Shown: positions 14,684 through 58,560 of the stretch, piece after piece
How the letters are laid out: each line of letters opens with the position of its first letter
Numbering within the stretch: position 1 is the first letter of the stretch
Source of the DNA: a virus
Reading direction: 5' to 3' (one strand)
IMG/VR virus record: IMGVR_UViG_3300047489_000453
Span: 1-64,000 of that record
DNA: 64,000 bases
The notes under the pieces: generated by a model
Database searches by the model: none
What the model saw: the letters and a program-made list of their open reading frames with translations, nothing else
What the model was told of the DNA's origin: nothing
Program-made: the position numbers and the translations under genes

Positions 14684-15744
14684 AGCACCCCTACCTTTTC
14701 TCTGCTATCAAGTTTCTTTTGAATTTCCGCTCTTATTTGACTTACTCTAGCCGGGGATATGCCCAGCTTCCTAGCTAAAGCCTCGTTGTCTAGTACTTCT
14801 TTTCCGTTCATACCAAACGTATGCTCCATGACCATTTGAGATCTTGGGTCAAGCCCGTCGTATACGAACCTTCTCCAAGCGTCTCCGCTGTCAGACGTCC
14901 CAGGAATGTTTACAGCTGGGTCATTAACATACTCGTCATCACCAGAAAACATAGCCTCAGTTGCGGCTCCTTCTGATATGCCTGGCTTAAATGACCTTAT
15001 GGTTTCTATTCTTTTTAGAGACATGCCAGTGTGGTCGGACAGCTCTTGGTCTGTAGGCTCTCTGCCAAGCTTATCCGTGAGCTCATTCATGGCCTGGTTT
15101 AAATGGTAACTGTCTATCTGCACTCTCTCTGGGACGTTTAAAATTTGGTTAGATTTAGCGTAAACCCTCCTAAGGCCTTGAAGGTGGGCCATAAGATGAG
15201 TCTTTAGCTTAGCTTGAGCAGGATCGTATGTATTTAAAGCCTCTAAAGCCATCCTATTGGCATGCAACCTTACACTTGGTGGGACATCTTGACCGACATA
15301 GCTTTTCAAAGCAGCTTCAATTATAGGCTGAATTTTTTGCAACATCATATCGTTGCTTTCTGGAGTTTGATTCTTCTTCCAGTTATTAAAAGACTCCTCA
15401 TATTCAGGCTCTATTTTGAGCTGGGATGATGGCTTCATATTAAATGGCTCATTTGCTTTTGAGCCATACGGGCTAGCTGGCTTGCTTGTACCGTCTTGAG
15501 GTTGGGCTGGAGCCATCAATGGAGGCTGTTGAGGCTGCGCCGGCGGCTGACCGAACATAGGGGCGGTGTTTTTAGGGGCTTCAGGCTCGCTAGAGGTGCC
15601 TGTAATAGCAGTATCGCTTAGGACAGAATTATTGTTATCGTCTGATGAGTCCAACAACGATTTAGGCTTGTTGGCCTGATTTTTTTGCCCCAAAGAAAAC
15701 ATAGTGGGGACGTCTCCAAAATTTTTCCTACCCATACTACTCAT
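14680..15744 (-). CDS. Sigma70-family RNA polymerase sigma factor (group 3-like) with a ~110 aa disordered N-terminal extension
   Basis: Region 2 ALEALNTYDPAQAKLKTHL, region 3 KLGREPTDQELSDHTGMS, region 4 HTH LDPRSQMVMEHTFG...EALARKLGISPARVSQI. Confidence 0.85.
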   Translation of the reverse strand: MSSMGRKNFGDVPTMFSLGQKNQANKPKSLLDSSDDNNNSVLSDTAITGTSSEPEAPKNTAPMFGQPPAQPQQPPLMAPAQPQDGTSKPASPYGSKANEPFNMKPSSQLKIEPEYEESFNNWKKNQTPESNDMMLQKIQPIIEAALKSYVGQDVPPSVRLHANRMALEALNTYDPAQAKLKTHLMAHLQGLRRVYAKSNQILNVPERVQIDSYHLNQAMNELTDKLGREPTDQELSDHTGMSLKRIETIRSFKPGISEGAATEAMFSGDDEYVNDPAVNIPGTSDSGDAWRRFVYDGLDPRSQMVMEHTFGMNGKEVLDNEALARKLGISPARVSQIRAEIQKKLDSREKVGVL

Positions 15745-21600: not shown

Positions 21601-23193
21601 TTCAACCACAGCCCTTTCAGCCTGTAAGTTTCTGCCTATTTTGTTGCCTATATCGTATTTACTTATAAATTCAGCGTTAGCTGACTGATTAGCCGCCAAG
21701 TCCTGTATTACGGCGCCTGATACGCCCTGGTCCTTTAGAAACGCGGCCATTCCGCCTGGTCTCATATGGATGCCCATTATCATTTTTGTATCAGCTTCAG
21801 TGGCCGGCTTTTTACCAGTTATAACGTCGTATACCTTGGAAAGCTCAGACCCTTGCTTAGGCTGAAACTTATACTGATCAACCAGTCTGGCTATAGCCCC
21901 AAGTTGCTGGGTTCTAAAATCTTTTACAGAATCCACGCCAAGCTGTTGTTGTATATTCATTAACTTATCGTGCGAGGCCAGGCCAAAAGCTCTAGCCCCT
22001 CCAAACATGCGCTTAGATGCCTCGTTTTCTCTCATTGCCTGCATGGTAATTTCTGGGGCAAATATTCTATCTACGCCGGCTCTATCGGTCATAGCCGCAG
22101 TTGCGCCCATCAACTTAAACGTAGTAGGCATGTCTATGCCTACAGCTTTAGCTGTATTAGAGGTATTACGTATCATCCTTTCTAGTTTTGCGGGCTCCAT
22201 AGAAGGTATATTAGCCTGGGTTAGAGACTCTATAGCTCCCACTAATTCCTGTATTGGGGCGTCTGGCTGGCCCATCTCTCCAAATATCTCTTTCATGGCA
22301 GAGACTGCCTTGGACATGTCCTTAAGTCGACCAGATATTCTGTCGGCGTCTATTTCTCGTATCTTTGTATCCACTTCTGGCAAGGCAGTAGCCTCTGCCA
22401 CAGTTATATTCATATCCTTCGCTATCTTTTGTATTGCTTCTGACCTAGGTCTAGCTCCGCCCATTAAGCCGCGTCTTTGCATATCGTCGTACAGAGCCCC
22501 AGCCTCGCCGGCCCTTAATCCGCCCATTTGCGAAATATCTTTACCAGGCCCGTACAAGTTTTCAAATACTCTTGTTGTTATGGCCGAGGTTGACTCTGGC
22601 GTAAGACCTCGTCTACCAGTTAAAGGGTCGGTAGCGTATCTGCCGCCCATGTACATGTTCTGAGCCATGACAGTAGCAGACCCTGTAGATCCTCCGAGCC
22701 TGTCCACTAAGTCTGGGTTGGTAGCGGCTATAAAAGGTAAAAATCCACTAGCCGATGAAGCAAAAGCTCTGGCAGCTTCTTGTTGTCTAGGCCCAAACTC
22801 GGAGCCTGTCATCCTAGCTGAGCCGCGAATCATCTCATATATGGTTCGACTGTCGGCCTTAGAAGCATCCCCTACTGACTTACGAAACCCGCCTAAGGCT
22901 TCCCTTGCCCTCATCTGGTTATGCATATTTACGCCTGGCGTGAAGTTGGCAGGAACGAAATTATTACCTACCATGCTTTGAAGCACGCCGCCCATAACCA
23001 TATCTATGATCATCTTTGTTCCAGGATCACTTATACCTACTAATCCTGAAATATTGGCAACCCCGTACTGCATACCTTGCTGAAGTGGGTATCCTCCAGC
23101 TAAAGGGGGCTGCGCTATGGCGTTGGCAAATGAATTAGGGAATGGTGAAAATTCACCAAACGTCATAGGTCTAGGAAATGTTAATGCTGACAA
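18631..23193 (-). CDS. Tail tape measure protein
   Basis: 1520 aa, helical and A/K/G-rich with no Cys or Trp; directly downstream of a frameshifting chaperone pair; TTG start with AGGAGG RBS. Confidence 0.8.
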   Translation of the reverse strand: MSALTFPRPMTFGEFSPFPNSFANAIAQPPLAGGYPLQQGMQYGVANISGLVGISDPGTKMIIDMVMGGVLQSMVGNNFVPANFTPGVNMHNQMRAREALGGFRKSVGDASKADSRTIYEMIRGSARMTGSEFGPRQQEAARAFASSASGFLPFIAATNPDLVDRLGGSTGSATVMAQNMYMGGRYATDPLTGRRGLTPESTSAITTRVFENLYGPGKDISQMGGLRAGEAGALYDDMQRRGLMGGARPRSEAIQKIAKDMNITVAEATALPEVDTKIREIDADRISGRLKDMSKAVSAMKEIFGEMGQPDAPIQELVGAIESLTQANIPSMEPAKLERMIRNTSNTAKAVGIDMPTTFKLMGATAAMTDRAGVDRIFAPEITMQAMRENEASKRMFGGARAFGLASHDKLMNIQQQLGVDSVKDFRTQQLGAIARLVDQYKFQPKQGSELSKVYDVITGKKPATEADTKMIMGIHMRPGGMAAFLKDQGVSGAVIQDLAANQSANAEFISKYDIGNKIGRNLQAERAVVEMTGFGRNVVGRYAKDAGDASAGLKKEMEENSGKLSEISARALMNASKEELNNPEDVVKKSLEAHFKSKGLVLSDKDKQLVNSMSAGLADNAKSYANRAGFQYLSNMQATLSPRILKEAAVTGAQVEQESQFQETLRGVAKTDVTQRLVDFIKTAGPNTEFKEGAAAILGFQNKDEMLGLLGPEIEAMGEASRIFSSFDARKVKEAYIRNAAVENKLDSEQQNLTEDQKKQNQENKENIKTQIVQAGLAKDMDDAEKRFSEFADYSKYKEEYKGVGTKEEARTRSKEILQDFQKRHGVTAKQARDLDLNDLTTAGRANALDTLRKAASSSGFEVLDKFGKTAQGGSRFKELNEAYNQLTSTESQDTQYGIEALRRFTDIYGSSKQMIETGGVEGARAMNQARGITDVLYNLAGATGSSITDLMSGKTPETMVGVDTEYLKGVKKGDIGLINDLLNEKDTIDVDVPDPNDPKKTISVKKSRAQVARENIENVSIKNLEEEIKTKPALKARNEQRISELKSISGMSKDQLKTKREGTEKTLKELESGVIDSAVKEFTDSLDTQKKADTQLDSLIKNISKTTGITDIAGNINMFTQEHKLTADERAETKRLLKSEESIKSKAGAEYGQLQELNKSFTKLSEDEAKELKGIKGDRSKQARAQELISKSGASSAEDYELKSKQFDEGIKTIVDKSKQSEADVRKTFELTKKAGQTSLDAANRHEDAVSTQEKRIGADNAKKLIDAKKESDKAAVRVSGSIAALDKYDPTNLLSKMGEGGFKQLIEASKKSMIDLTGKLSGALTSPSGAKLSDEEKEKLFIRNNTGGIGTAYLRNIGVDQSKFTQGDQPALMKVASDINAAANQAAKLGKLDAKASDEDKLKQLRTVLSKEDSKLTAEEKAFKQGLEKEGITDKIFAGSGGFSTTGLKNLVSEAQKGMPKSASLTGKPGDPSQPGQPKEIVAVLPKNTKFEITGKLAFSGKVDGSMTTDVPNKATT

Positions 23194-36310: not shown

Positions 36311-36335
36311 GATAGCCTCCGAAGCCTATTGAAAT

Positions 36336-36357
36336 TGGGGCCTCGTTAGAGGCCCCA
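36336..36357 (-). terminator. GC-rich hairpin directly after the major capsid gene (weak terminator or mRNA-stabilising stem)
   Basis: TGGGGCCTC-TAAC-GAGGCCCCA followed by only ATTTC. Confidence 0.55.
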
Positions 36358-36363
36358 TGCCCA

Positions 36364-37293
36364 TTACGCAAAGTCAGCTCTAGCGATTGCGTTGGTGTTA
36401 CCAATTGCACCGCCGAGGGTTTCATAGGCGAAAAATTCGAGCATATACGCCTTACGATCGATATAAAGCGTGGTATCCTCTAAAATGAAACTTTTGCCTA
36501 CAAATTTAGGGTCAGCGAACATAAAGATGCTGTCCGTAGGAACCAAATCCTGCTTGATGGAGATAATCCAACGAGCATTCATGAAGTTCTGTTCGGTCCA
36601 ACCGTTCTTGAATACGTCCTGGCTGAAGTCACCGCCCATTTCTTCACGACCGAATTTCATCAGTTCGCGAATAGTAAGGTTGTTGATCAAGCAGGTGCCT
36701 ACTTCAAGGCGGCTGATGGTGCGAGGCAGAATCTTGAAAGCATCTTGAAGGGTATCACGAGTGATACCGCCGTAGATGGTTTCCCACTGTACCAAACCGG
36801 ACTGGGATACAGTAGTGTTAGCTGCGCTGCCCATAGCTGCGTTGCAAGCGGCGATGAACTTGCGATCTTCTTCCGCTAACATGTCCTTTATGGCGTTATC
36901 AGACAGGATCTGCCTGATGTCCATACGATAAGTGCGAAGTTCATCAACGTCCTTCGTGAATCGTGGGGTCACGATTCGGTCAAAGGTAACGCGATACTTC
37001 TGGCCACGAACATAGAGGTTCATAGGCAGAGTAGCGAAGGGAATGGAGATAGCAGCTGGGCTATCAGGTTCCCTTTCGATGATCTTAACAGGCTTATCGG
37101 TATCTACCTGTTGATCGAGATCGTCGTTGCTTACCTGGATTGGAGGAAGAATTCGTCGATAGAATCCTTCTTCACGCATCCTGTACCTGGTGTAGTCGAC
37201 CACTGCGTCGAGTGCTCGCTTTTCCATTCCAGGGGTTTCAAGGTAGCTGAGGAATGTTTCGTTCATCAGCTTAGTGTCGTTGTCGTAAGACAT
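36364..37293 (-). CDS. Major capsid protein (HK97-type fold)
   Basis: 309 aa; follows protease, scaffold and decoration genes; RMREEGFYRRILPP, IKDMLAEEDRKFIAAC and FFAYETLGGAIGN resemble large-phage capsid proteins; strong RBS. Confidence 0.75.
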   Translation of the reverse strand: MSYDNDTKLMNETFLSYLETPGMEKRALDAVVDYTRYRMREEGFYRRILPPIQVSNDDLDQQVDTDKPVKIIEREPDSPAAISIPFATLPMNLYVRGQKYRVTFDRIVTPRFTKDVDELRTYRMDIRQILSDNAIKDMLAEEDRKFIAACNAAMGSAANTTVSQSGLVQWETIYGGITRDTLQDAFKILPRTISRLEVGTCLINNLTIRELMKFGREEMGGDFSQDVFKNGWTEQNFMNARWIISIKQDLVPTDSIFMFADPKFVGKSFILEDTTLYIDRKAYMLEFFAYETLGGAIGNTNAIARADFA

Positions 37294-47260: not shown

Positions 47261-47680
47261 TTAAGAGTCATAATCCGTAATATTTACATTTAGCAGGCTT
47301 CTAGCCGCTACTCCGCTCTTTATAAAATTTAGGAAGTTTTGAAGATTCCTAATTTCAGCCATCTTAGCATAATTAGTTTGTGAATTAATAGTGGAGACAT
47401 CTCCACGATTAATTTGTTGTACAGGAGAAGGAGGCTGAATGACTGGCTGGGGATTATTAGATTGGGTCGTCACTATAGGCTGACTCTGTACTCTAGGCTG
47501 TATATTAGGGCTAGTATCTACTGACTTTACAGCCACTTCAGAAGGCGGCTTACCCTTAGTGGCCTCGTTTACTTGCAAAGGTTTTAGTGTTTCTTTTTCT
47601 GTTTTAGACTGGGACCCTTCAAGTTTTAAAGACTTGTCGGCCTGCTTCCAGGTAGCCCACTTTTCTAAAAAGGTTTGCAT
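47261..47680 (-). CDS. Low-complexity hypothetical protein with K-x-A motifs
   Basis: TAATG-coupled to the RNAP beta'-C gene; EKWA, WKQA, AKMA. Confidence 0.55.
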   Translation of the reverse strand: MQTFLEKWATWKQADKSLKLEGSQSKTEKETLKPLQVNEATKGKPPSEVAVKSVDTSPNIQPRVQSQPIVTTQSNNPQPVIQPPSPVQQINRGDVSTINSQTNYAKMAEIRNLQNFLNFIKSGVAARSLLNVNITDYDS

Positions 47681-49590
47681 TATAGTACGCCCTTGCTCTG
47701 TTCAGGCACTTTGCCAAGCTCATTAACGTCAAATCCTTTTACCTTACCTTTACGACCAAAATCAACAGCTTTTGCCAATGATGGCACATATGATGTGCCA
47801 GCTTCGTCGCTTATGGCGCCTCTATGCACAGCTTGTAAGGTAGATTTTCTTAGATTGCTCCCCAGCATTCTAGTCATCCAGTCAGGGTCATGCTGAAGAT
47901 TTTCTAGACCTCTGACAAAATGGGGCTCAAACGGTGGAGGTTCTTTGTGGACTGTAATATCTTTTATGCCAAATTTTTCAAACTCTCTAACCATAGACGG
48001 CCTTATAGGCGTGCCTATCGTATAGTGAAGAACAGGTTTTTCCAAATAGCTTCCTACTCCTTGATTAGGCTTAACCGTTCTACTGTCTTGTCTAGGCTCC
48101 CATACGCTTTCAACTGAGTCATAAGGTATGACGTCGTCAGGGTTAAACTGATTATATTCGTCATTCATGATGACATGGTTGATAAGGCCTTTGGACATTA
48201 CCTCTATATTTCTGCGATGGCCGTACATGCCGGCCTCTTTCATTGCAGTCCTAAAAGAATTAACGAATTGGCGACGGCCCTCGCCTATTCCCCTAAACTT
48301 AGTAAATTGAGCAGGGTTGGGAATACCAGAGGATATGACATCTCCGGCTTCTACAGTATCGCCTACCTTTACTGAAGCGGAAGCCTCAGGGCTGACGTAA
48401 TGTTCTACGCCGTCTATAGTTACAAATACACCACCAGTAGGCGCAGGTTTAATATTTGATACTCTACCGTCCTTTTGTGCATGAGTAGCCCAGAATGGAG
48501 ACTGCTTAGGGATTTGCACTAATTGATTGAGGTGCCTAAAACCAGACACAGACGCGGACGCTCCTGCGATACCGCCAGTGTGTTTAGAGTTTAGCTGCCC
48601 TTGAGAAATGGGCTCTGATAAAGCCTGCATAGCAGCAATTCCAACAGCATCTCCTATAGGTGCAAGACCTGATCTTTCTCTAATTCCTAGGTCCCTTGCA
48701 TATAGCCCTCCACCGGCAGCTCCCGACGCTATTGGGCTCCTGATGACTATTCTGTCTATGTTCTTTGATTTTAAATCTTTAAGAACTCTAGGCGTGAGCA
48801 CAGTGTTTCTTCCGTAACCTCCGGCAGGCATTCCTAATAGTGCGCCTTCGTTTTCCTCGTCATCCGTGTCTACCGGCATCCCCCTGTTCTCTATTGATTT
48901 AGGGTCGTCAGCATCTTCGCCAGTAACTATCATCCTGTGGCCGATTTGATTTAATTGCTTGGAAAAGAAGCCTGCGTCCATAACTGAGAACTTGGTATCT
49001 GTGATACCTTTTCGTGTACCAAAGCTCCCTGCGAAGTATTCAGACGGAGTTAGTCCTTTTGAATAAGAGTTAAATACTGGTATTGGTATTTCTCTATCGT
49101 GATGATCGGTATATAAAATGTCGCCGCCTCTAAGGCTTTTGAGGTTTTTAGGCTTACCTCTGGACCCGGACTGAATTTGCCTAGCTAACTGATTTCCTTC
49201 AGCGCTAGCTTCATCAAATATACCTTTTTCTAGATCTTTTTGAGAATTAGCTAAGATAGCTACAATTTGTTTATTCTTATCGTCATCAGTGAGCTGTCTA
49301 TTTGAAATAATTGAGTCTATAGCTGCTTTAAGTTTTAGTTTTCTGTCGTGATAAAATTTTGATTCCCTAAGATCGCTAAGACCAAAAGAGAAGCCACCAG
49401 AGTTATATGACACGTCTCTACCGACGTCCATAAGCCCTTTGGCTATCTGTCTGTATTTGTCTGGGTGATTTTCTGCTACCGTCTGAAGAATACCTTGAAC
49501 TGCTTTGGTATCTAGAACTCTAGAGTAGTCCTTAAGCTCGTCAGGAAGCGCGTCATTAACCATGATTTGACCTATAGTGGTCTTTAACAT
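47680..49590 (-). CDS. Phage multisubunit RNA polymerase, beta' C-terminal half (bridge helix, trigger loop)
   Basis: TTIGQIMVN, QSGSRGK, bridge helix GLTPSEYF...GTRKGITDT...AGFFSKQL, trigger loop GDAVGIAAMQALSEPISQGQLNSKHTGG. Confidence 0.92.
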   Translation of the reverse strand: MLKTTIGQIMVNDALPDELKDYSRVLDTKAVQGILQTVAENHPDKYRQIAKGLMDVGRDVSYNSGGFSFGLSDLRESKFYHDRKLKLKAAIDSIISNRQLTDDDKNKQIVAILANSQKDLEKGIFDEASAEGNQLARQIQSGSRGKPKNLKSLRGGDILYTDHHDREIPIPVFNSYSKGLTPSEYFAGSFGTRKGITDTKFSVMDAGFFSKQLNQIGHRMIVTGEDADDPKSIENRGMPVDTDDEENEGALLGMPAGGYGRNTVLTPRVLKDLKSKNIDRIVIRSPIASGAAGGGLYARDLGIRERSGLAPIGDAVGIAAMQALSEPISQGQLNSKHTGGIAGASASVSGFRHLNQLVQIPKQSPFWATHAQKDGRVSNIKPAPTGGVFVTIDGVEHYVSPEASASVKVGDTVEAGDVISSGIPNPAQFTKFRGIGEGRRQFVNSFRTAMKEAGMYGHRRNIEVMSKGLINHVIMNDEYNQFNPDDVIPYDSVESVWEPRQDSRTVKPNQGVGSYLEKPVLHYTIGTPIRPSMVREFEKFGIKDITVHKEPPPFEPHFVRGLENLQHDPDWMTRMLGSNLRKSTLQAVHRGAISDEAGTSYVPSLAKAVDFGRKGKVKGFDVNELGKVPEQSKGVL

Positions 49591-49599
49591 GGTACTCTC

Positions 49600-49812
49600 C
49601 TATAAATTAATCTTCCTGATAACTGGTTTATCCAGCCCGTGATCTTCTAGAACTTTTAAAAAATCATCATCGCCTGCAGTGGCGCAGACGATGATGTTTT
49701 TATCATTCTCAATAAAAACAGCTATAGGATTATTCATATTGTCGTAAACCACCAGCCTGGTAGCGGGCGACAGCCTATGATTTAAAAGATTATTATGATA
49801 ATCCAATAACAT
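49600..49812 (-). CDS. Small hypothetical protein
   Basis: 70 aa, TAATG-coupled, directly upstream of the beta'-C gene. Confidence 0.55.
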   Translation of the reverse strand: MLLDYHNNLLNHRLSPATRLVVYDNMNNPIAVFIENDKNIIVCATAGDDDFLKVLEDHGLDKPVIRKINL

Positions 49813-50456
49813 TATTTTTTCTTTCTAAGCAAGTACATCATTCCAGCGGCTTTCTCAGCTACAGAGATTTTAGCCGACTTAATTGGAGAGGTGTCTTGCG
49901 AAGAAGCGCTCGTAGCATCTTCACCATCTTTAGCTGGCGACGATACGTCATCTAGAATGTCATGAGGAAGGTTAAGCCCTAACGATGAATACAGGTGTGT
50001 CAAAAGCTTCTGTATTCTATGCATGTACAGCTCAACTTGCCCATTATCGTTTTTCTTTGAGGCTTTACCGGTGCCTTTGGCCCCGGCTAAAGCTTTTTGA
50101 AGCTCTTCCTGTACCACAGTTCTAATTTGCTCAGTAGGATCAGCTGGAGGGGATGCTCCGGCCGCAGCTGGATCCATAGGAGGCGCTCCGCCCATCATAG
50201 CTGGGTCCATAGGAGGCGCTCCGCCCATCATGGAGGGGTCCATAGGAGGTGCGCCGCCTGGAGGCATGCCGCCCATCATGGAGGGGTCCATAGGGGCTCC
50301 ACCTGGAGGCATGCCCCCCATCATAGATGGATCCATAGGAGGCGCTCCGCCCGGAGGCATACCGCCCATAGCTGCTGGGTCGCCGCCTTGGGTAGGAACA
50401 AAAGCACTTTTAATGCTATTTTTTGCTGATTGAAGCAGGAATCTATTAACTGCCAT
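49812..50456 (-). CDS. Met/Gly/Pro-repeat protein with K-x-A motifs
   Basis: GGMPPGGAPPMDPSMM-type repeats; IKSA twice, EKAA. Confidence 0.65.
   Translation of the reverse strand: MAVNRFLLQSAKNSIKSAFVPTQGGDPAAMGGMPPGGAPPMDPSMMGGMPPGGAPMDPSMMGGMPPGGAPPMDPSMMGGAPPMDPAMMGGAPPMDPAAAGASPPADPTEQIRTVVQEELQKALAGAKGTGKASKKNDNGQVELYMHRIQKLLTHLYSSLGLNLPHDILDDVSSPAKDGEDATSASSQDTSPIKSAKISVAEKAAGMMYLLRKKK
50170..50370 (-). repeat. Coding tandem repeat (about 5 imperfect units of (GGMPP)GGAPPMDPxMM)
   Basis: Recurring CCATAGGAGGCGCTCCGCCCATCAT units on the + strand. Confidence 0.85.
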
Positions 50457-50500
50457 TGTATTTTATCTCCGTTTTAAGCCCCAGTATATGCATCGCGTGT

Positions 50501-51397
50501 TTATATTTTTCCAGAATCGTCAGTATGCATTTTGTCGAATAGTATTGGGCTATCTCCAATATTATCAGAAGTATGACTAAAGTCAGGTTGCACAAGTTGT
50601 TTATATGGATCGTGCAATCCAGTAGAACCTGGAAACTTACCAGTATAAGGATTAGGCCTTACAGGTATAAGAGGAGCAGAGTTTTTAGCTGCTTCTCTTT
50701 CTGCTAACATTTTGCCTAAAATAGAGCTTAAACTTCCAGCTCCTGCACCTATTACACCGCCGCCCAGCGCGCCTGTTGCAAATCTGTTTAACATCCCTTT
50801 TCTTTTGCTGCCTAAAGCTAAGTTTCCTACGCCGCCTACACCGGCTCCAATTAGAGAACCCATAATAGCTTTTTGAACTCTTGGGTCTAATTGTCCATAA
50901 GCCGACATAATATCAGATACCGCAGCACTTTTATTAAAGGCTCTGAGAACATGATTAGCGTTATTAAAGCCTGATTCTTTTATGCTCATTTCTTCAACTC
51001 CTAAAGTATCTGCGCTTCCGCATTTCCATTTTCTTAAAGACTTGTTAATCCTGCTGTCCGGGTCATTAGCCGTCTCAGATGAAGTAAGTTTTGACTTCAT
51101 GCCTTTCATTCTGGCGCAGAAGCTATCTTTGCGCGCCCCGCCTTCCGGCTGAGGCCTCTTTATATCATGCCCTTGCGCCTTTAAGCTAGCCCTGCCTTTT
51201 TCGTTTAATCCGCCTTCTGGATTCTTACCTTCGGCTTTTTGCCAGGCGGCTGTGCCTTTTTTCTCTGATATTGATGTTACTTTCTTCCAGTTTTTTGCAT
51301 CTGGATAGTCTTTATCGCCTGGCTTGGCTGGAGCCTCGCCTCTCTCTTTTTTAGCGTGAATATTAGCCCACAACCCCGGCTTAGACTTATCTGCCAT
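50501..51397 (-). CDS. Mosaic protein: small basic phage modules (DUF6321-like) plus a glycine zipper
   Basis: AAWQKAEGKNPEGGLNEKGRAS...SFCARMKGMK...DPDSRINKSLRKWKC, then NKSAA and GSLIGAGVGGVG / GALGGGVIGAGAG. Confidence 0.65.
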   Translation of the reverse strand: MADKSKPGLWANIHAKKERGEAPAKPGDKDYPDAKNWKKVTSISEKKGTAAWQKAEGKNPEGGLNEKGRASLKAQGHDIKRPQPEGGARKDSFCARMKGMKSKLTSSETANDPDSRINKSLRKWKCGSADTLGVEEMSIKESGFNNANHVLRAFNKSAAVSDIMSAYGQLDPRVQKAIMGSLIGAGVGGVGNLALGSKRKGMLNRFATGALGGGVIGAGAGSLSSILGKMLAEREAAKNSAPLIPVRPNPYTGKFPGSTGLHDPYKQLVQPDFSHTSDNIGDSPILFDKMHTDDSGKI

Positions 51398-51415
51398 TTT
51401 TAACTCCTTTTAAAA

Positions 51416-51510
51416 CCAGTTAAAAGCCTTCATCTACTCTGTCGCACTTCCGCTTCGAGTGATGATTAGTCCCAGGAAAGTGCTAAAACGGGCCCTAGGC
51501 TTTCAACTGG
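51416..51510 (-). ncRNA. Candidate structured RNA: 14-bp outer stem, 13/14-nt internal bubble, 8-bp inner stem
   Basis: CCAGTTGAAAGCCT pairs with AGGCTTTTAACTGG and GCACTTTC pairs with GGAAGTGC; both mismatches are G-U pairs only on the minus strand. Confidence 0.4.
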
Positions 51511-51521
51511 ATCTATAGATA

Positions 51522-53009
51522 CTAACGCTTAGAGCCTATCTCTTTAAGCAAATTCAAGAACTTTTCATTAAGTTCTTGCTTCTTTTGTGCTGCTGCCATC
51601 AAGTATTCGTCAGTGGCAGGATCGCCTTCAGGTTTAAACCCTATTAGTCCTAGCAGCGATTTTAGCCTACTTGGAGCCGTTCTCGCCAGATATCTTTCTA
51701 TTTTTACTTTTCTCTCTTCAGGTGGAAGGTGCTCATGGCTGTCAAACCTTAAAGCTCTTCCTTCGCTTTGCGACCCTCTGCTGGTATTCCAGTGCGGGTC
51801 CAGTAGCTGCACTAGCTTTGTGCCTTTAAACGATAGCCCCTCTGTTCCGGCTGGGCCTAGCAGAGCCACCTTTAACTTATCAGCATTAAAATCATCTACT
51901 AGTTTTTTCCTTTCCTTGTCGCTTAACGCCCCTGTAAAGGAGGCGGCAGGTATACCAGCTTTATTTAATGCAGCCAGGTAAGGAGACAAGCCGGCGTCAA
52001 CAAAATTAGAAAATACTAACGCCTTGCCTCTTGGGTCTGTCTTAAGAAGGGTATTAAGCCTATTAAACGCCTCGTTTAGTTTTGGAGACTCTTTGAACGC
52101 CTTCATAGGGTCGGCATTATCTTTCATAAATGGAAGAGTGGATAAGCCTACTTGTCTTGGTCCTGTTAAAAAGCTTACTAACTTTTTTGACTCCTCATCT
52201 GTGAGAGGGTAGTTAAGTTGTAGCTTCCATTTAAGAAGAGTCGGCAGCTTTCCAAACAATTGATTATATAAATCTGTCTGGTCTCTGCTCATCTCTACTA
52301 TTACGTCTTCTCTGTTAATGTCAGCTCTTGGTTTTAAAGGAGCAAAGTAATCTACCTTACCTTTTAATGATTTTTTTAGCTCTTCCACGTTTTTTAATTC
52401 TGGGTCGTGGGCTTTTACATTTAGAAGCAGCTTATACCATGGGGCCTTTTCTGGTTTGCTTACGTACCTTTCAGAGAAGGCCTCAGGCGTCATTTCGCTA
52501 TCGGTAAGTACGTTATAAGGTACGGCAAAGTCGGCTGGGCTATTAACTATGGGGGTTCCAGTAAGAAGAACAGCTTGTCTAGCCTTCCTTGCTGCCTCTA
52601 AGAGATTCTTAGTCTGGGCTGACTCCATATTTCTAAATCTATGAGCCTCGTCTACTAATAAAGATTCGGGATGCTCTATAGGCTTGCCCATAGCCAGTCC
52701 CGTATGGCTCATTATTGATGACGGGGTAGCAGTTGCAGGATCTATAAATTTTTCCTGCTCTTTTTTAAGATTAGTTCTAAGAGCTGCCGGCACTATGGCC
52801 GTGTAAGGAATTTTAGTAGCATCAGCGGCCGCCAGACCGCTTAAAGTCTTGCCCGACCCAAGACTATGATAGAGCAGCATTCTAGCTCTATCTTTTTTAT
52901 CTATCTGTTCTTGAACCTTGTCTACAACGGCCTGCTGATGCGGCTGTAGATTTACGCCTTGAGCTAAGTCGGCCTGCTTACAAATTGTGGAGACGTCGAC
53001 ACTACTCAC
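51522..53009 (-). CDS. SNF2-family (SF2) helicase/ATPase
   Basis: LQPHQ, HSLGSGKT, VDEAH, LLTGTP, ALVFSNF, GTEGLSF, QSEGRALR; coupled (GTGA) to the RNAP fusion gene. Confidence 0.92.
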   Translation of the reverse strand: MSSVDVSTICKQADLAQGVNLQPHQQAVVDKVQEQIDKKDRARMLLYHSLGSGKTLSGLAAADATKIPYTAIVPAALRTNLKKEQEKFIDPATATPSSIMSHTGLAMGKPIEHPESLLVDEAHRFRNMESAQTKNLLEAARKARQAVLLTGTPIVNSPADFAVPYNVLTDSEMTPEAFSERYVSKPEKAPWYKLLLNVKAHDPELKNVEELKKSLKGKVDYFAPLKPRADINREDVIVEMSRDQTDLYNQLFGKLPTLLKWKLQLNYPLTDEESKKLVSFLTGPRQVGLSTLPFMKDNADPMKAFKESPKLNEAFNRLNTLLKTDPRGKALVFSNFVDAGLSPYLAALNKAGIPAASFTGALSDKERKKLVDDFNADKLKVALLGPAGTEGLSFKGTKLVQLLDPHWNTSRGSQSEGRALRFDSHEHLPPEERKVKIERYLARTAPSRLKSLLGLIGFKPEGDPATDEYLMAAAQKKQELNEKFLNLLKEIGSKR

Positions 53010-56000
53010 TTTCCTGTCTCCATTATCACGACTCTATCGTTAATATCTATGTCGCCAGATCTGTAAGCTCTTATAGCGTCAGCTTTGGTCTTAAAGTATT
53101 TCTCTGGTCTTTTTGAAGGAGCAGCGGATGCAGCGTATAGCCCGCCCTGATACTCGTTAGCTGGAAGCTGATGAACTTTAAATGACTTAGCTGCCATAAG
53201 GTTACGACTTGGCAACATCTTTTCCATCGCGTCTTTTACAGCCTCGTCCGTGCTTGGAACGTGATAGTTCATGGCATCGCCATCAAAGTCGGCATTAAAA
53301 CCTTTTACTATTATTGGAGACACCTGTAGCGTGCTACCTTTTACCAGCTTAGGCTTAAACGCCATTACACCATATCTGTGAAGAATAGGCGCCCTTGTCA
53401 CTATTACGGGCCTTGCGTCCATCTCGGCAACCATGGCGTCTCTGGCCATGTTGTCTTTCTTATCAATCATGTCGGCAGCTTTAAACCTATCAACGCCTCT
53501 ACGAATAAGACGCCTCATTATAAACGGTTTATATACTGACCAGGCTCTATCCTCTGGAAGGCCTACTTCGTCCATGTCCAGATCAGGGTTAGGAGTAATT
53601 GCCGCCCTTCCTACCATATCAACTTGAGAGCCTAAAAGTTTTCTTTGAACAACGCCAAACTTAGGATTATCTCCGAATACTTGCTTTAATATTCCTTTTA
53701 CGTTTTTCTTTTCAAGCTTTGGATTAACAGAATCTCCAAGGCCAGTTATAGCCTTAAATGAGTCATAAAGAGCTAGTCTGTGTTGAGACAAGTCAGAAAA
53801 TGACTTTGAAGCTTCTCTGAACTCATTATTAACGTCGATAAGTTCCTTGTATAGGTAGTTAGCATCTCCGACCATCGGTAGACCGTTGTTAGACATTATA
53901 CTTACAGGTCTAAACACTGGAGGCAAAACGGGTACTTTTGTAAGCATCCATTCTGATGGGTGTATCTTAAGGTTCTTAGCGCTCTTAAGATAACTAAGCT
54001 TTCTTACAGCGTCGTCCCTGTACGACTTTTTACCGGACGCAATTATAGCTCTGGCTTTGGCTATTTCTTGATCCACGTTCATGGATTTGAGCGCATTAGC
54101 TATGGCTGAGGGCCCAGAGGCACCTCCAAGCTGCTCTTTTCCAGCTAGTACGTCTCTAAATTTATTCTCAGTTAGACCTAGAACTCTTCTTATAGGGTCT
54201 TCCATAACAGGGTTAGGCATTGCCTCGTGAAGCTTTATATGGCTCCACATGTTGCCGCCATGCCCGCCTGTAAGAGATACGTCAAATAGACCGCCACCAG
54301 CAGGCTCAAGACCTTTGCCCCAGTCTACTGTATCTGATTTTTTGATTTCCCTATTTCCTGACAGGGAATCTATATCCTTGTCAGTAAGGGCCATAAGTTG
54401 TGTCTTAGTTCCACTTCTTACAGGGTTTATTCCAGACGCCTGGAGCTGAGCCATGAACTTTCTGTAAGTCAGTGGGACTCTAGGTATTGGAAGAGGTCCG
54501 CCTGTCATAAAGGACGCCCAGTAATCTTCGTTCTTCTGGCCCCTTATAGCGCCGGCATCCCTAAGTACTTCGTGAGCGCCGTGTGACAATAAAGCGTTAA
54601 CGTCCATTAATGATACGCGCTTGCTTCCTTCTTCACCGCCCTTGGCCGGAGTCTCTTCAGAGGTATATCCGCCGCTGCCTATACCTCTACCCTGGCCTTT
54701 AGACTCCGAGGTATGGTGTAGCTTTAAAAAGAACCTGTTTCCTGTGAATATGCCTTTTATTTTTCTTCCAGTCTCCGGGTCTTCAATATCTTCCTTGTCG
54801 CTCATGTTATTTTTTTTAAGTTCATTAAGAGCAAACTCGGTAAGATCCTGGATGTTTTCAAAATCTTTTACCGCGTACCTTTTTCCAGTCTTTGCAGCTA
54901 TCTTTCCTAGAGCAGCCTCAATCATCTGACTTGGGTTTGTTCTAGATATAACGCCAAGGGGATTAAGAAGAATGTCAAAAGGATTGCCCTCTGAATCTCT
55001 AGGCATTTTTGAATCTGGAATAACGGCGGATATAACTCCCTTATCGCCATATCTACCTGACAGCTTGTCGCCTTCTTTTGAACTGCTAAGGCTTTTTACA
55101 GTTACTGATACTCCCTTATTTGTCTTGGTAACATCTGTAACTACGCCATCGTTTTCGTGGTCCCAGGTAATAGATGCATTACTAAACCCAGTCTTTGACC
55201 TGCCTATCTGTTGATTGTGTGACCTTGAAAGAATTTTGGCCTGTAAAAATAAAGGGTCTCCCTTTCTTACTACAGTGCCTGGCTTTATGGCGCCGTCATC
55301 GTCCAGAGAGTCAACTACCTGTCTAGAATAGTCTGAAGGAAATAATGTTAGAAATCCTCTTTTGCCTTCTTTAGTTTCCTTGCCAAATTCAGCTTGGTGC
55401 TGATACATGTGCTCTGACGTTAATTTTTTAGCGGCGCTTTCAGATATAACTACAGCGTCTTCAAAGTTATAGCCTTTATAAGGAATGTAGGCGGTTCTAA
55501 GATTAATGCCCAGAGCAGCTGTACCTTTTTCATCGGTATAGTTTGACCTTGCTAACAGCCCGCCTTTTTTTACCATATCGCCAACTTTTACAGTTGGAGT
55601 GTTGTGTAAAAAGGTTTTTCTATTAAAAGGTAAATTGTTGTATATCTCTTGCTTGTAAAGCTTTCCGTCTGTTCCTCTAATTCTAACCTCGTCGTTGTCG
55701 GCATAAATTACTTGGCCATCAACATCAGAGTAGGCTGCGCCCATATGCTTGCCGTATTCCTCTTCATATGATTTATCCTCTTCGCCAAGCTTACCGGACT
55801 GCACAAGTGGGGCCTCTGGATTTTTCAGAGGCAGAGCCTGGGTAAGCATTCTTGAACCCATCACTACTCTTTGGCCAAATGTAGCGCTCTTAAGCGGAAC
55901 CATGTTGGCAAGGTGATTAAAGGCGCTGTCCATTCTAGGCAGTTCGAAGTCAACATCTTGTCTATCAACATATTTAATCTTACCGCCGGCCATAGCGGCT

Positions 56001-57457
56001 ACTTTAGTCTTTGATTTATCTATGAGCTGGTTTGGAAACGCTATTACTGACTGGGCCATCTCTTGCGGAGTTTTCCAAACTTCATCACCTGTTCTTACAT
56101 CTCTAAACTTAGAATAAACTTTTCCGTCTACGCCTTTGCGGGCGTTTGTAGCTATTCTGCTATCAATACCCACCTTAAGTGACTCTGGCGTAAGCAGAGG
56201 ATCTATGTAGCCAAAGTGAGATGGCTGAACGTTTCTAGCTTCTTCTGGAACAGCTTGCAAGGAAGGAATGCCGCCTTCGCCGAGACGACTTACTCTGGTG
56301 ATTTGATTTAATAAATCAGCTGGATTTACTTCTTCAAGAGGCTGGCCCAAGCCGCTTTTCATAATAGCGGAATTAACCTGTGAAGATAAAAATCCAGGAG
56401 CAAATGGCGATAAGTTTTGTTTAAAGCTGGCCTTCCACAGCAGAGGGCGCATAACTTTATAAGCAGCCCTAATTCTTTCAGTAAATAAATCTTCAGGGCC
56501 ATACAGATTCTGATAGGCCATGGCGTCTCTGTCGTCTGGATCTGCCTCTTTTCTATGCACAGCTAATATTCTTTTTGTGGCTGCCAACACTGAATCAACT
56601 GACAAGTTAGAGAAGCCTTTACCTAAAGTTGCAGCCGTAACTTCTGGATCAAGCTCCATTTTTGTCATGGCAGCTGCTACGGCTTTAGCTTTACTTTCTT
56701 CGGTCATGGCCTCGCCAGGCTGTAGTCTTCCTATCTTTTTGAAGATCTTGTCTAGGTATTGAGGATCATTTTTAACTGCGTTTGAAGCGTATATCTCATT
56801 TCCCCACGCTTCCCTAATCTGCTTATCGCTAGCGCCCATAGCTTTAAGAACTGGCATAAGAGGCACATTAGACTGGCCAAATGAAATATTAAACACGCCC
56901 TTTTCTGGGCTTAAAGAGTATCTATGAGATAGCCCCTTGCCAGGCATTACGTTTACGTGGCTTTCAACGTCGCCGCTATTTGTTATTCTTGTAAATACAC
57001 CCGGCCTTAGCCTCATCTGGTTAGCCAAGGTATACTCAGTGCCGTTTACTATATAAGTTCCTCTATCTGTTAGGTAGGGAATCTTAGCTATAGTTGTCCT
57101 CTTGCTTTCAAGCACCTTGCCCGTACTATTATCGATTAGATTTATTGTACCTTTGAGGCCGCGACTGAGAGTTTCGCCTTTTAATATGGCTTCTTTTTGA
57201 GTCTTTATAGGCTTTACCTCTTCAGGGTCGCCCCAGCCTACATCTGTAATTGATAGAGTGTGTCTCTGGTTACTGAGAGGCTGTAACGACGAGGCTGCTG
57301 TCTGAACTCCGTTAAATATTGCAGCTCTAGTAGCCTTTATGTCATCAAACCCTCTCATGGAAGGGGCTTGCATAGAAGGAACTAAGCCGACCATTTTATT
57401 GGCCGGCTTAGGAATGAGGCCGCTGCTATCTGGCTGATCGGGAAGTACGCCGGCCAT
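53006..57457 (-). CDS. Phage multisubunit RNA polymerase: beta subunit fused to the beta' N-terminal (catalytic) half
   Basis: Beta motifs GTYIVNGTE, SRLGEGG, GYNFEDA, GDKLSGRYGDKGVIS, LKLHH; junction after LQASGINP near 54420; beta' motifs PVLPPVFRP, LLGSQVD, RAPILHR, and NADFDGD at 53276-53296. Confidence 0.95.
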   Translation of the reverse strand: MAGVLPDQPDSSGLIPKPANKMVGLVPSMQAPSMRGFDDIKATRAAIFNGVQTAASSLQPLSNQRHTLSITDVGWGDPEEVKPIKTQKEAILKGETLSRGLKGTINLIDNSTGKVLESKRTTIAKIPYLTDRGTYIVNGTEYTLANQMRLRPGVFTRITNSGDVESHVNVMPGKGLSHRYSLSPEKGVFNISFGQSNVPLMPVLKAMGASDKQIREAWGNEIYASNAVKNDPQYLDKIFKKIGRLQPGEAMTEESKAKAVAAAMTKMELDPEVTAATLGKGFSNLSVDSVLAATKRILAVHRKEADPDDRDAMAYQNLYGPEDLFTERIRAAYKVMRPLLWKASFKQNLSPFAPGFLSSQVNSAIMKSGLGQPLEEVNPADLLNQITRVSRLGEGGIPSLQAVPEEARNVQPSHFGYIDPLLTPESLKVGIDSRIATNARKGVDGKVYSKFRDVRTGDEVWKTPQEMAQSVIAFPNQLIDKSKTKVAAMAGGKIKYVDRQDVDFELPRMDSAFNHLANMVPLKSATFGQRVVMGSRMLTQALPLKNPEAPLVQSGKLGEEDKSYEEEYGKHMGAAYSDVDGQVIYADNDEVRIRGTDGKLYKQEIYNNLPFNRKTFLHNTPTVKVGDMVKKGGLLARSNYTDEKGTAALGINLRTAYIPYKGYNFEDAVVISESAAKKLTSEHMYQHQAEFGKETKEGKRGFLTLFPSDYSRQVVDSLDDDGAIKPGTVVRKGDPLFLQAKILSRSHNQQIGRSKTGFSNASITWDHENDGVVTDVTKTNKGVSVTVKSLSSSKEGDKLSGRYGDKGVISAVIPDSKMPRDSEGNPFDILLNPLGVISRTNPSQMIEAALGKIAAKTGKRYAVKDFENIQDLTEFALNELKKNNMSDKEDIEDPETGRKIKGIFTGNRFFLKLHHTSESKGQGRGIGSGGYTSEETPAKGGEEGSKRVSLMDVNALLSHGAHEVLRDAGAIRGQKNEDYWASFMTGGPLPIPRVPLTYRKFMAQLQASGINPVRSGTKTQLMALTDKDIDSLSGNREIKKSDTVDWGKGLEPAGGGLFDVSLTGGHGGNMWSHIKLHEAMPNPVMEDPIRRVLGLTENKFRDVLAGKEQLGGASGPSAIANALKSMNVDQEIAKARAIIASGKKSYRDDAVRKLSYLKSAKNLKIHPSEWMLTKVPVLPPVFRPVSIMSNNGLPMVGDANYLYKELIDVNNEFREASKSFSDLSQHRLALYDSFKAITGLGDSVNPKLEKKNVKGILKQVFGDNPKFGVVQRKLLGSQVDMVGRAAITPNPDLDMDEVGLPEDRAWSVYKPFIMRRLIRRGVDRFKAADMIDKKDNMARDAMVAEMDARPVIVTRAPILHRYGVMAFKPKLVKGSTLQVSPIIVKGFNADFDGDAMNYHVPSTDEAVKDAMEKMLPSRNLMAAKSFKVHQLPANEYQGGLYAASAAPSKRPEKYFKTKADAIRAYRSGDIDINDRVVIMETGK

Positions 57458-57459
57458 GC

Positions 57460-58560
57460 TTATCTCCCTAGATGTGCGATAGGATTATTATTTTCTTGTT
57501 TTTTAGCACTAGGAATAGGCGTAGGAGTGACGTAAATAGGAGACCCTTGCTCCTGCTGCCTTTGCAGAAACTCAGCTAAATACCTATTAGATTCGTACGG
57601 CTCTGTATCTTCTGCTTTAGCTCTTCTTAGACCATGGTATGTGCCTATTCCACCACCAATGAGCCCTAATGCCCCAGTCAAGCCTAAAGCGGCTCTTCCT
57701 TGTTGAGTACCTAGAAGAAAGTTATTAGTTCTGCCAGCTACGTCCATAAGAGCCTTAATCCCTTTAGACAGGCCTGTGCTAGCTAGGTCCCATGGCGACA
57801 TTCCATTTCTCGCTATATCATCTATTTCTTGCTGGCTCTTTCCGGCTAGGCCGAGCCGCCCAGCCCACCGTTCAAGCGTAGGAGCGCCTGCTAAAGGGTC
57901 ATTAGACACATCTACGACCCCTTTACCGCCAGCAGCTTTCTCTATGTACAATTCTGATAGTTCGTCTAAATCATTAATTATCTCTTCAGAGACGGAAGCA
58001 GCTTTTGCTCGAACGGCCTCAACTGGATTATTTAACTTACTGGCACTAGTCTCCACTAGAGTCTTATTAAACGCCTCTCTAGCTATGTCTTGGTCATCTT
58101 GTACGTCTTTTTTTCGTTTATTTTTTAAAAGTTGGCTTAAGGTCAAGTAGCTAAGTAGTCCTGGTCCGCCCATAGCAGTGACGACGCCAGGTAAAAAATA
58201 TGGATTAGTAAGATTCTTCCAGTCGTATAAGTTAGAGACTGGAGCAGATGCAGTGTCTCCTGCCTTCTTTTCATTTTTAGGTTTAACTTCGTAGTCTTCC
58301 CCTGGACTAAAGTCTCTTAATTTATCAGATCTTTTGTCTGGTTTTCTCCCCATTTCTTTGGAAAGGTCGACTCCTTCTGGCTCAGAATCCATTCCAACAA
58401 CAGGAAGATACGCAGAATACCCTAAAGATTCCGGTAAAACAGCTGGGGTGGACCCGCGCAGTAAATGCTTAATAGCAGGTATACTAGACCCTACTCCAAG
58501 AGATATAAGGCCAAGCTTTTTAAGATAATCCCACTGCTGCGGCGTATACATGTCAGACAT
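57460..58560 (-). CDS. Membrane/glycine-zipper protein (putative ejection protein)
   Basis: Hydrophobic Gly-rich helices separated by EKKAG, AKAAS, EKAAG; no Cys. Confidence 0.55.
   Translation of the reverse strand: MSDMYTPQQWDYLKKLGLISLGVGSSIPAIKHLLRGSTPAVLPESLGYSAYLPVVGMDSEPEGVDLSKEMGRKPDKRSDKLRDFSPGEDYEVKPKNEKKAGDTASAPVSNLYDWKNLTNPYFLPGVVTAMGGPGLLSYLTLSQLLKNKRKKDVQDDQDIAREAFNKTLVETSASKLNNPVEAVRAKAASVSEEIINDLDELSELYIEKAAGGKGVVDVSNDPLAGAPTLERWAGRLGLAGKSQQEIDDIARNGMSPWDLASTGLSKGIKALMDVAGRTNNFLLGTQQGRAALGLTGALGLIGGGIGTYHGLRRAKAEDTEPYESNRYLAEFLQRQQEQGSPIYVTPTPIPSAKKQENNNPIAHLGR

Follow-up and report, generated by a model that had tools for sequence, protein, structure and literature searches.

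Cysteine exclusion in a two-chain RNA polymerase, a sigma factor and an SNF2-family ATPase encoded in the virion gene block of an uncultured phage: candidates for a packaged transcription machinery

Introduction

Can a phage particle deliver an RNA polymerase (RNAP) of nearly bacterial type together with a true sigma factor? The question is raised by a 64,000-nucleotide stretch (the window) that makes up the first 64 kb of IMG/VR record IMGVR_UViG_3300047489_000453, and in particular by a gene cluster at positions 47,261 to 57,457 of this window, which encodes a two-chain RNAP and an SNF2-family ATPase (the helicase); a sigma70-family factor is encoded elsewhere in the window. An earlier note, made from the sequence alone, had pointed out that these proteins are practically devoid of cysteine, and had proposed that the phage packages and injects them as a holoenzyme. 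Here, we report that the cysteine exclusion is conserved well beyond chance, and that its best explanation is probably a late-made, virion-packaged, and ejected sigma70-type holoenzyme accompanied by an SNF2 motor.

The phage in question is uncultured and myovirus-like, and belongs to a large, environmental clade that is distantly related to Salmonella phage Arash. Its IMG/VR record comprises 136,787 bp with a CheckV completeness of 67%, which corresponds to a genome of about 200 kb, and nearly all genes of the window lie on the minus strand. By megablast, this DNA matched no deposited phage at the nucleotide level. The clade includes more than 100 clusters (at 90% identity) of the larger polymerase chain, down to 53% identity, and many contigs of about 200 kb. 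In a check for closer cultured relatives, the nine clusters with an NCBI source (from 120) proved to be metagenomic or metagenome-assembled genome entries only. The best named relatives by protein are Arash and Vibrio phages D69, D181, and D148, with about 32% identity over 95-99% of the larger chain.

Two-chain RNA polymerase

The larger polymerase gene (53006..57457, minus strand) encodes a cysteine-free protein of 1483 residues with Pfam matches to both Rpb2_6 (PF00562, E 2.3e-54, 185 bits against a cut-off of 23.4) and Rpb1_1/Rpb1_2 (PF00623, E 1.7e-24). Because these domains occur together in one chain, we regard it as a fusion of beta with the N-terminal part of beta' (beta-beta'N). When mapped to Salmonella RpoB and RpoC, the fusion holds the whole of beta, followed by the beta' segment that spans approximately bacterial residues 160-548, and its PDB matches include beta chains (E 6e-72) as well as beta'/gamma chains (E about 1e-47). 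The catalytic NADFDGD motif is located at residues 1387-1394 (DFDGD at 1390), and the active-site residues D1390, D1392, and D1394 are invariant across 42 aligned fusion homologues.

The second chain (beta'C; 47680..49590, minus strand), likewise without cysteine in its 636 residues, was recognized by Rpb1_5 (PF04998, E 1.1e-17). It corresponds to bacterial beta' from about RpoC residue 572 onward, and aligns to residues 945-1384 of Thermus beta' (E 1.9e-30). Here, RpoC residues 1-159, which include the zinc-ribbon cysteines C70, C72, C85, and C88, find no aligned counterpart in the phage chains, and those of the second zinc site (C814, C888, C895, and C898) are replaced by A227, S289, a gap, and L296 of beta'C. 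In fact, every one of the seven cysteines of Salmonella RpoB and the 15 of RpoC is either substituted or situated in a part with no phage counterpart. Judged from these alignments, the phage polymerase is without both beta' zinc sites.

As to overall architecture, the phage beta and beta' domains align with bacterial RNAP along their length, and the break in beta' falls at the gamma end of the cyanobacterial gamma/beta' split, with gamma chains of 624-625 residues in the PDB matching fusion residues 1113-1478. The phage enzyme differs from bacterial RNAP in that its beta is fused to beta', and that neither cysteine nor an alpha or omega subunit was found. Models for alpha (PF01000) and omega (PF01192) both matched 14 of 14 control genomes and gave no match in the phage's own 67%-complete record, whose incompleteness means that the missing match is not proof of absence. 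Moreover, a single PF00562 (beta) match was obtained in this record and in each of five relatives, four of them at least 90% complete.

Sigma factor

The sigma70-family factor (14680..15744, minus strand; 354 residues, no cysteine) is encoded two genes upstream of a baseplate-wedge gene and was identified through Pfam Sigma70_r3. Its region 3 (PF04539) scored 38.2 bits against a cut-off of 25.3, region 4 remained under its cut-off (17.8 against 24.1 bits), and region 2 gave no Pfam match. In a phmmer alignment, residues 78-346 cover residues 79-358 of the group-1 sigma factor SigA of B. subtilis (E 1.4e-6). One sigma region-3 match was found in the phage's own record and in each of five polymerase-bearing relatives. 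Arash differs in having a second sigma (gp196), which searches with gp196 itself (run without a positive control) and with Pfam Sigma70_r2 found neither here nor in four near-complete relatives.

A P/Q/S-rich insertion of about 80 residues (approximately 36-115; 15400-15640, minus strand) follows a conserved N-terminal peptide in this sigma, and has no equivalent in the other 47 members of the sigma clade, which mostly have about 275 residues. The conserved peptide itself, RKNFGDVPTMFSL (residues 6-18; 15676-15714, minus strand), resembles the N-terminal RKDFG......DVPYLLSI of Salmonella RpoB. The phage's own beta N-terminus retains only R-x-F-x-D of this, and the likeness between sigma and RpoB may be a coincidence.

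Of the complex that the earlier note had envisaged (both chains plus sigma), one interface was predicted, with residues 1084-1483 (the beta' part) of the fusion and residues 100-354 of sigma as input. The score was 0.42 (0.44, 0.42, and 0.37 in the separate runs), as compared with 0.00 for the best of three controls, and the runs agreed in at least 52% of contacts with a predicted local distance difference test (pLDDT) value for the partner of at least 69. Of 80 solved complexes, 58 reach the pass mark of this prediction, as do 2 of 110 mismatched pairs, and scores of 0.60 or lower were given to only 7 of those 80 solved complexes, but to both of the mismatches that passed. The pass may also reflect likeness to solved holoenzymes, since sigma and core are a textbook pair. 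Thus read, the prediction lends weak support to a binding of sigma to the phage beta' part.

SNF2-family ATPase

The helicase gene (51522..53009, minus strand) shares four bases at its start with the stop of the fusion gene, and its 495-residue product matches Helicase_C, SNF2-rel_dom, and ResIII in Pfam. The AF2 model (pLDDT 86.7, predicted template modelling score 0.81) shows a bare two-lobe SNF2 core, with residues 1-11 at the N-terminus being disordered (pLDDT <50). The only cysteine, at residue 10 (...STICKQADL...), lies within this segment and is S or D in the nearest homologues.

Among the 50 Foldseek matches listed for this model, ISWI, Chd1, Mot1, INO80, CSB, and vaccinia NPH-I were about equal (E 1e-21 to 1e-19). 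By sequence, vaccinia NPH-I (6rfl_Y, E 1.7e-11) was the best PDB match, though for the C-terminal lobe only (residues 326-445). RapA was not among the 20 PDB sequence matches listed, nor among the 50 fold matches. RapA carries N-terminal RNAP-binding domains, and the phage protein at 495 residues scarcely exceeds the SNF2 core. Because RapA is outside the listed sequence and fold matches, the description of this ATPase as RapA-like stands as a statement on superfamily and plausible function, and not on any specific likeness. NPH-I serves early transcript release in poxviruses, whose particles hold a core-packaged multisubunit RNAP together with this SNF2-family ATPase, and thus offer a parallel in which the helicase's best PDB sequence match (28th in the fold ranking) takes part. 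Poxviruses differ in that they infect eukaryotes, their enzyme is Pol II-like, and their initiation factors are unrelated.

As a side observation, the disordered N-terminal peptide of the helicase is conserved (consensus K-x-A-D-L) and includes K-Q-A-D at residues 11-14 (52968-52982, minus strand). The same four residues occur at positions 12-15 (47635-47646, minus strand) of a 139-residue cysteine-free protein encoded at the end of the cluster, and echo the KQAEEFG start of two proteins with a putative leader motif that are described below. In the phage's own record, an N-terminal KQA[DE] is present in three cysteine-free and one cysteine-containing protein among 126 of at least 100 residues (Fisher P 0.017); one match was found in related genome G002 and none in G004. 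As a mark of cysteine-free proteins, this weak enrichment, unreplicated in G002 and G004, is unproven.

Cysteine exclusion and its conservation

Protein sets for cysteine counting came from a greedy caller of open reading frames (ORFs), without a gene finder, that selects the longest ORFs, with a minimum of 50 or 60 residues and overlaps of at most 60 bases; they hold a few spurious or mis-started ORFs, such as 35951-36349 (plus strand), which replaces the minus-strand ORF 35918-36310. Our recount agrees with what the earlier note had given, namely no cysteine in the fusion, beta'C, and sigma, and one in the helicase, at residue 10 within ICKQA. Background cysteine content is 0.82% in the window (169 of 20,723 residues in 56 listed ORFs) and 1.22% in the whole record (523 of 42,801 residues in 153 greedy ORFs). 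At 1.22%, the probability of zero cysteines is 1.2e-8 for the fusion, 4e-4 for beta'C, 1.3e-2 for sigma, and 7.7e-9 for a 1520-residue, tape-measure-like protein of the same window. The four transcription proteins have one cysteine in 2968 residues where 36.3 would be expected (Poisson P 6.6e-15, or 7.6e-10 at the window background).

The same pattern is kept by homologues, and this is the strongest finding of the analysis. Of the 120 listed for the fusion (53-100% identity), 108 are of normal length, and among them 95 have no cysteine, ten have one, and three have two (16 in 159,312 residues, or 0.010%); one short homologue (1350 residues) has none. The other 11 are long, carry intein-type inserts, and have 4-16 cysteines each, 78 of these 95 being outside the polymerase-aligned parts, in inserts that splicing would remove. 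Nine of the remaining 17 are within five residues of a segment edge, C1560 of P0089 is clearly in the polymerase body, and four of P0025 fall where two alignment segments overlap. For sigma, all 48 proteins of its clade are cysteine-free (12,712 residues), with ten bacterial-like sigmas at the bottom of the same list having nine cysteines in 3,332 residues. Cysteine is also absent from 108 of 120 helicase homologues (92 of the 99 with no more than 560 residues). In 26 related IMG/VR loci, beta'C has 19 homologues, 13 of them cysteine-free (0.19% overall). Neighbouring families from these loci, taken as controls, are ordinary in this respect: a 792-residue protein was cysteine-free in none of 17 cases (0.91% cysteine), and ribonucleotide reductase (RNR) had 2.5%.

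For a genome-wide ranking, 105 orthologue families were compared between the phage's own record (background 1.22%), G002 (190 kb and 92% complete; background 1.38%), and G004 (203 kb, ending in terminal repeats; background 1.57%). Here, the beta-beta'N fusion is the most depleted of all (0 cysteines in 4443 residues, P 1.5e-27), followed by the 1520-residue tape-measure-like protein (0 in 3250, P 3.7e-19), the SNF2 helicase (1 in 1826, P 1.4e-10), beta'C (3 in 1937, P 7e-9), a 921-residue homologue of the Arash structural protein gp236 (12 in 2925, P 1e-7), and, in sixth place, sigma (0 in 902, P 4e-6). Cysteine density is otherwise a stable family trait, with a Spearman correlation of 0.90 between orthologues of the phage's own record and G002 (n = 87). 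Given this retention in homologues and ranks 1, 3, 4, and 6 of 105 families, the cysteine exclusion is real and not due to chance, is strongly conserved, and is particular to these proteins. The depletion that the earlier note had read from one genome is therefore upheld against background, and the cysteine content of the homologues is not a normal one.

Separately, the intein-type inserts (LAGLIDADG_3 and Intein_splicing) are located at varied sites in fusions P0021, P0025, P0032, P0034, P0038, P0039, P0046, P0048, P0089, P0092, and P0112. Helicase homologues P0287, P0289, and P0292 likewise carry such inserts, with most of their cysteines found there.

The homologous module in Arash virions

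Arash (OQ632216.1) has the same set of proteins as the phage studied here, and local BLAST against all Arash ORFs paired the fusion with gp206 (E 0, 32% identity), beta'C with gp216 (2e-41, 24%), the helicase with gp217 (3e-66, 32%), and the wedge-adjacent sigma with gp10 (3e-16, 28%). Arash, too, has one polymerase set. Further pairs are the wedge with gp13 (E 2e-16), the capsid protein with gp226, the portal with gp204, and virion proteins with gp218, gp222, and gp236. On account of these pairs, both phages can be said to have their polymerase genes within the block of virion genes and their sigma gene next to that of the wedge, and the location claimed in the earlier note holds through homology to Arash major capsid protein gp226, gp218, gp222, and wedge gp13. 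Gene order is different, in that the Arash portal abuts the fusion and the helicase follows beta'C, whereas here the helicase follows the fusion and the portal is about 45 kb away. Vibrio phages D69, D181, and D148 have unstudied homologues of the module.

Purification of the Arash virions was by a 0-45% sucrose gradient and pelleting. In their reported proteome, each of the four homologues is present, at peptide counts comparable with portal and capsid (PMC10585845). Foremost as the most-detected protein is gp206, with 128 unique peptides and 3516 spectra, and the counts for the others are 40 and 1210 for gp216, 38 and 1148 for helicase gp217, and 24 and 467 for sigma gp10. For comparison, the portal gave 32 unique peptides and 877 spectra and the capsid 30 and 1333, with two unique peptides each for ligase, primase, and helicases gp193 and gp197 (PMC10585845). 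Beta, beta', sigma, and helicase were thus already listed together in this 2023 proteome, so that the combination is not, as the earlier note had it, unknown from characterised phages. The module is already in print, without follow-up, and a virion-borne multisubunit polymerase is of a known kind.

With regard to cysteine, gp217 and gp10 have none, nor does gp4 (1097 residues), the second most detected protein, and the third, gp229, has two in 2548 residues. The other Arash sigma, gp196, which is not named in the paper (PMC10585845), has three, as against none in virion sigma gp10. As an aside, a D69 sigma (VPHD69_0246) with two cysteines is encoded near the polymerase genes, placed like Arash gp196, and gave no BLASTP match to the sigma studied here.

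Comparison with other packaged polymerases

That the virion RNAP (vRNAP) of coliphage N4 lacks cysteine, and that this is attributed to the periplasm, is in print, as the earlier note had stated. The vRNAPs of N4, a roseophage, and DEV are without cysteine, which has been linked to entry or periplasmic passage (PMC2784036, PMC11445570), and across 191 Schitoviridae the vRNAP (gp71) homologues have 0.00075% cysteine versus a background of 0.865%, with periplasmic passage again suggested (PMC11445570). The N4-like vRNAP (gp50, or gp71 in DEV) resembles the present case in its near-total, family-wide cysteine exclusion, and is packaged, ejected, and encoded with an ejection operon. Yet it consists of a single giant chain, has a T7-like single-subunit catalytic domain, and lacks a sigma, so the likeness is convergent and not one of homology.

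The virion RNAP of phiKZ-like and AR9-like jumbo phages is a multisubunit two-barrel enzyme that is described as packed in the head, injected, and reading early genes without alpha or omega (PMC8287921). It differs from the present enzyme, which is far nearer to bacterial RNAP, in that phiKZ has two polymerase sets that are otherwise split and no sigma70-family factor. In fact, BLASTP at E <=0.01 of the phage proteins against ten phiKZ RNAP subunits and two helicases gave no match. In the consulted parts of two reviews, no sigma factor is reported in the phiKZ group (PMC7824862) or in polymerase-encoding jumbo phages (PMC7824862, PMC7598289), and an SNF2 helicase, which may work like RapA, co-varies with the phiKZ-group polymerase genes (PMC7824862, PMC7598289). 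Helicase gp203 of phiKZ, labelled a structural protein in its record, has six cysteines.

In term searches, cysteine was not found in the Arash paper (PMC10585845), in Weinheimer and Aylward 2020 (PMC7481178), or in the 2020 review of jumbo-phage RNAPs (PMC7598289), and Weinheimer and Aylward 2020, which deals with polymerase-encoding Caudovirales, gave no match for sigma, virion, or helicase either. Moreover, a limited literature search returned no further study of a virion multisubunit polymerase with sigma, or of the Arash virion RNAP and sigma. The virion polymerases characterised in the literature consulted are of two sorts, namely single-subunit enzymes (N4) and multisubunit ones that are very divergent and lack a sigma70-family factor (phiKZ, AR9). 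A particle that delivers a near-bacterial core with a true sigma would, if confirmed, be a third solution, and the enzyme a natural minimal RNAP of two chains, with no zinc and no alpha or omega found. Such a minimal two-chain make-up would be useful for asking what a bacterial polymerase needs in order to assemble and start transcription, and because a cultured, published relative exists in Arash, the question is directly testable.

Proposed mechanism and alternatives

According to the reading that we favour, the four genes would be expressed with the virion genes, as their position and common strand suggest, and their products would be built into the particle, as indicated by mass spectrometry of the Arash homologues only. 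By analogy with the N4-type vRNAP, the proteins would exit through the tail with the DNA, and cysteine may have been excluded since any disulfide made in the periplasm or outside the cell would prevent the chains from unfolding, passing, or refolding. Once in the cytoplasm, the two chains and sigma would assemble into a holoenzyme able to transcribe early genes with no need for host RNAP or newly made protein. The SNF2 motor would act on the polymerase-DNA complex, in release, recycling, or termination as does poxvirus NPH-I, or possibly by drawing DNA in.

A bolder version, which we put forward as a tentative and rather doubtful one, has the clade run its whole infection on this one alpha-less, zinc-free, beta-beta'-fused polymerase, delivered by the virion as a ready-made sigma70-type holoenzyme with its SNF2 motor. 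Host RNAP and new protein synthesis would then both be dispensable for early transcription, the motor and the polymerase might also help to pull the genome in, and the cysteine exclusion would mark cargo that crosses the envelope unfolded.

Several observations weigh against a packaged and ejected holoenzyme. Experimental virion support comes only from homologues that are 24-32% identical, and from a list of 116 scored Arash proteins that includes RNR, ligase, and primase, for which the authors offer carry-over of abundant proteins as an alternative (PMC10585845). It is the two cultured relatives, Arash and D69, that are the least strict in their cysteine content, with one in Arash gp206, four in gp216, and two and four in the D69 chains. 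The phiKZ virion RNAP (gp178, gp149, gp180, and gp80; subunit lists from PMC8287921) has 16 cysteines in 2614 residues (0.61%), as compared with 33 in 2850 (1.16%) for its non-virion RNAP. This removes cysteine-freeness as a general signature of packaged multisubunit RNAPs; packaging does not require it, and the signature may have another cause. A scan of 46.5-62.5 kb for sigma70-consensus promoters gave 23 matches with 24.6 +/- 5.5 expected, which is chance (terminator-like sites in the same region were mildly above expectation, at 26 versus 17.2 +/- 3.9). The A-x-x-F-G-x-x-M-G-K-x-A motif, considered as a packaging leader shared with other candidate cargo (see below), is absent from the polymerase, sigma, and helicase. 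Lastly, with a single polymerase set per genome, the polymerase may also, or only, act as an ordinary intracellular enzyme. Cysteine-freeness is, then, neither necessary for packaging nor, at present, sufficient proof of it, though as a rule it makes a cheap sequence marker for candidate ejected cargo, with false negatives as phiKZ illustrates.

The likeliest alternative takes the enzyme as an ordinary intracellular RNAP for middle or late genes that is cysteine-free for another reason (for instance, selection against residues sensitive to oxidation once the zinc sites had been lost, or evasion of a host or phage factor that targets thiols), with its detection in Arash, where the purification was by sucrose gradient only, being carry-over of abundant late proteins. 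While the carry-over stated by the Arash authors, the loose tracking of packaging by cysteine content in phiKZ, the single RNAP set, and the lack of a capsid-targeting leader all speak for it, we judge this account improbable. The Arash fusion tops the spectra with 128 unique peptides, as against two for evident contaminants (PMC10585845), and the sigma that has cysteines is gp196 and not virion sigma gp10. Moreover, extreme depletion is otherwise seen in families that are candidates for the virion or for ejection (here the tape-measure-like protein, in Arash gp4 and gp229), and cytoplasmic replication enzymes of the same genomes keep 1.2-2.5% cysteine.

Less probable again is a sigma that redirects the host core RNAP and is no partner of the phage polymerase. 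Jumbo phages without an RNAP do encode sigma factors that likely act with the host core (PMC7598289), the phiKZ group is reported without one (PMC7824862), and the predicted complex of sigma with beta'N gives weak support only. Even so, the absolute cysteine exclusion is common to this sigma (48 of 48 in its clade) and the polymerase, the Arash homologue was detected in virions together with the polymerase (PMC10585845), and there is one sigma in each of the five polymerase-bearing relatives.

The weakest alternative, that the proteins are packaged but are no injected early-transcription machine (being internal or DNA-organising cargo, or delivered while host RNAP reads early genes), is very unlikely in our estimation: the genes do lie in the late block and the sigma70-consensus scan identified no phage-specific early promoter at 46.5-62.5 kb, but the active-site motifs invariant in 42 homologues and the retention of a full sigma and an intact ATPase core argue for enzymatic use, and the known packaged polymerases of N4 and phiKZ are described as injected and transcribing early genes.

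Neighbouring genes and further observations

Pfam and PHROG annotation gave nothing for most proteins of the virion block. Directly upstream of the fusion gene (57460..58560, minus strand) is a gene for a 366-residue cysteine-free protein of no known family, without Pfam or PHROG match, whose hydrophobic stretches are glycine-zipper-like and whose G002 orthologue has one cysteine in 355 residues. This protein is a candidate for co-packaging or for a membrane-active role in ejection. Inside the cluster, a 298-residue DUF6321 protein (50501..51397, minus strand; PF19846, E 1.7e-16) has two cysteines and a C-terminal glycine zipper, and with glycine-zipper-like stretches visible in these two proteins, the sequences agree with the glycine-zipper neighbours mentioned in the earlier note. 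Between the helicase and beta'C genes lies that of a 214-residue, cysteine-free, low-complexity protein with MMGGMPPGGAPPMDPS repeats (49812..50456, minus strand), for which five of six homologues in related loci are also cysteine-free. Directly downstream of beta'C is the gene for the 139-residue protein introduced above (47261..47680, minus strand), which is of no known family and has four of four homologues cysteine-free.

Further along the virion block, the 1520-residue protein (18631..23193, minus strand), with neither cysteine nor tryptophan, is encoded between hub-like and baseplate genes, and its G002 orthologue (1730 residues) also has no cysteine. The cysteine-free tape measure of the earlier note is right as to cysteine, with the label tape measure resting on position and an A/K/G/S/E-rich composition and no Pfam or PHROG match being found. 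Of the proteins said to carry cysteine, RNR has 15 (in the part within the window) and the baseplate-wedge homologue two, and there are ten in the hub-like protein of 877 residues; no protease was identified. In their own right, we note that the giant tail-associated proteins gp181 of phiKZ (one cysteine in 2237 residues) and gp229 of Arash (two in 2548) are nearly cysteine-free, and a low cysteine content may be common to long proteins leaving by the tail in general.

The major capsid protein (36364..37293, minus strand) has 29% identity (E 2.5e-40) to Arash gp226, which is annotated as such. The mReC clade (PMC7481178) combines beta/beta' with a capsid of the PF07068 type and a terminase of the PF03237 type. 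When the phage was checked for membership in it, the capsid protein had no Pfam match, and PF07068 and PF03237 were not found in the 67%-complete record, with the PF07068 control itself matching nowhere.

A second cysteine-free cluster is located beyond the window, at genome positions 79270-89797, and comprises nine proteins of 237, 208, 175, 280, 567, 418, 137, 271, and 321 residues; seven of ten proteins of this cluster were without Pfam or PHROG annotation. Six of its proteins, five at the N-terminus, carry the A-x-x-F-G-x-x-M-G-K-x-A motif, which may be a leader by which internal or ejected cargo is processed or targeted to the capsid. Another candidate motif, GDV.T, was dropped, as it occurs in the first 40 residues of the phage's own sigma and the G002 helicase only. 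Lastly, the virion block includes two small cysteine-rich ORFs, one of 82 residues with 11 cysteines (9551-9799, minus strand) and the other of 103 residues with eight (32896-33207, minus strand), both of which may encode zinc-ribbon proteins.

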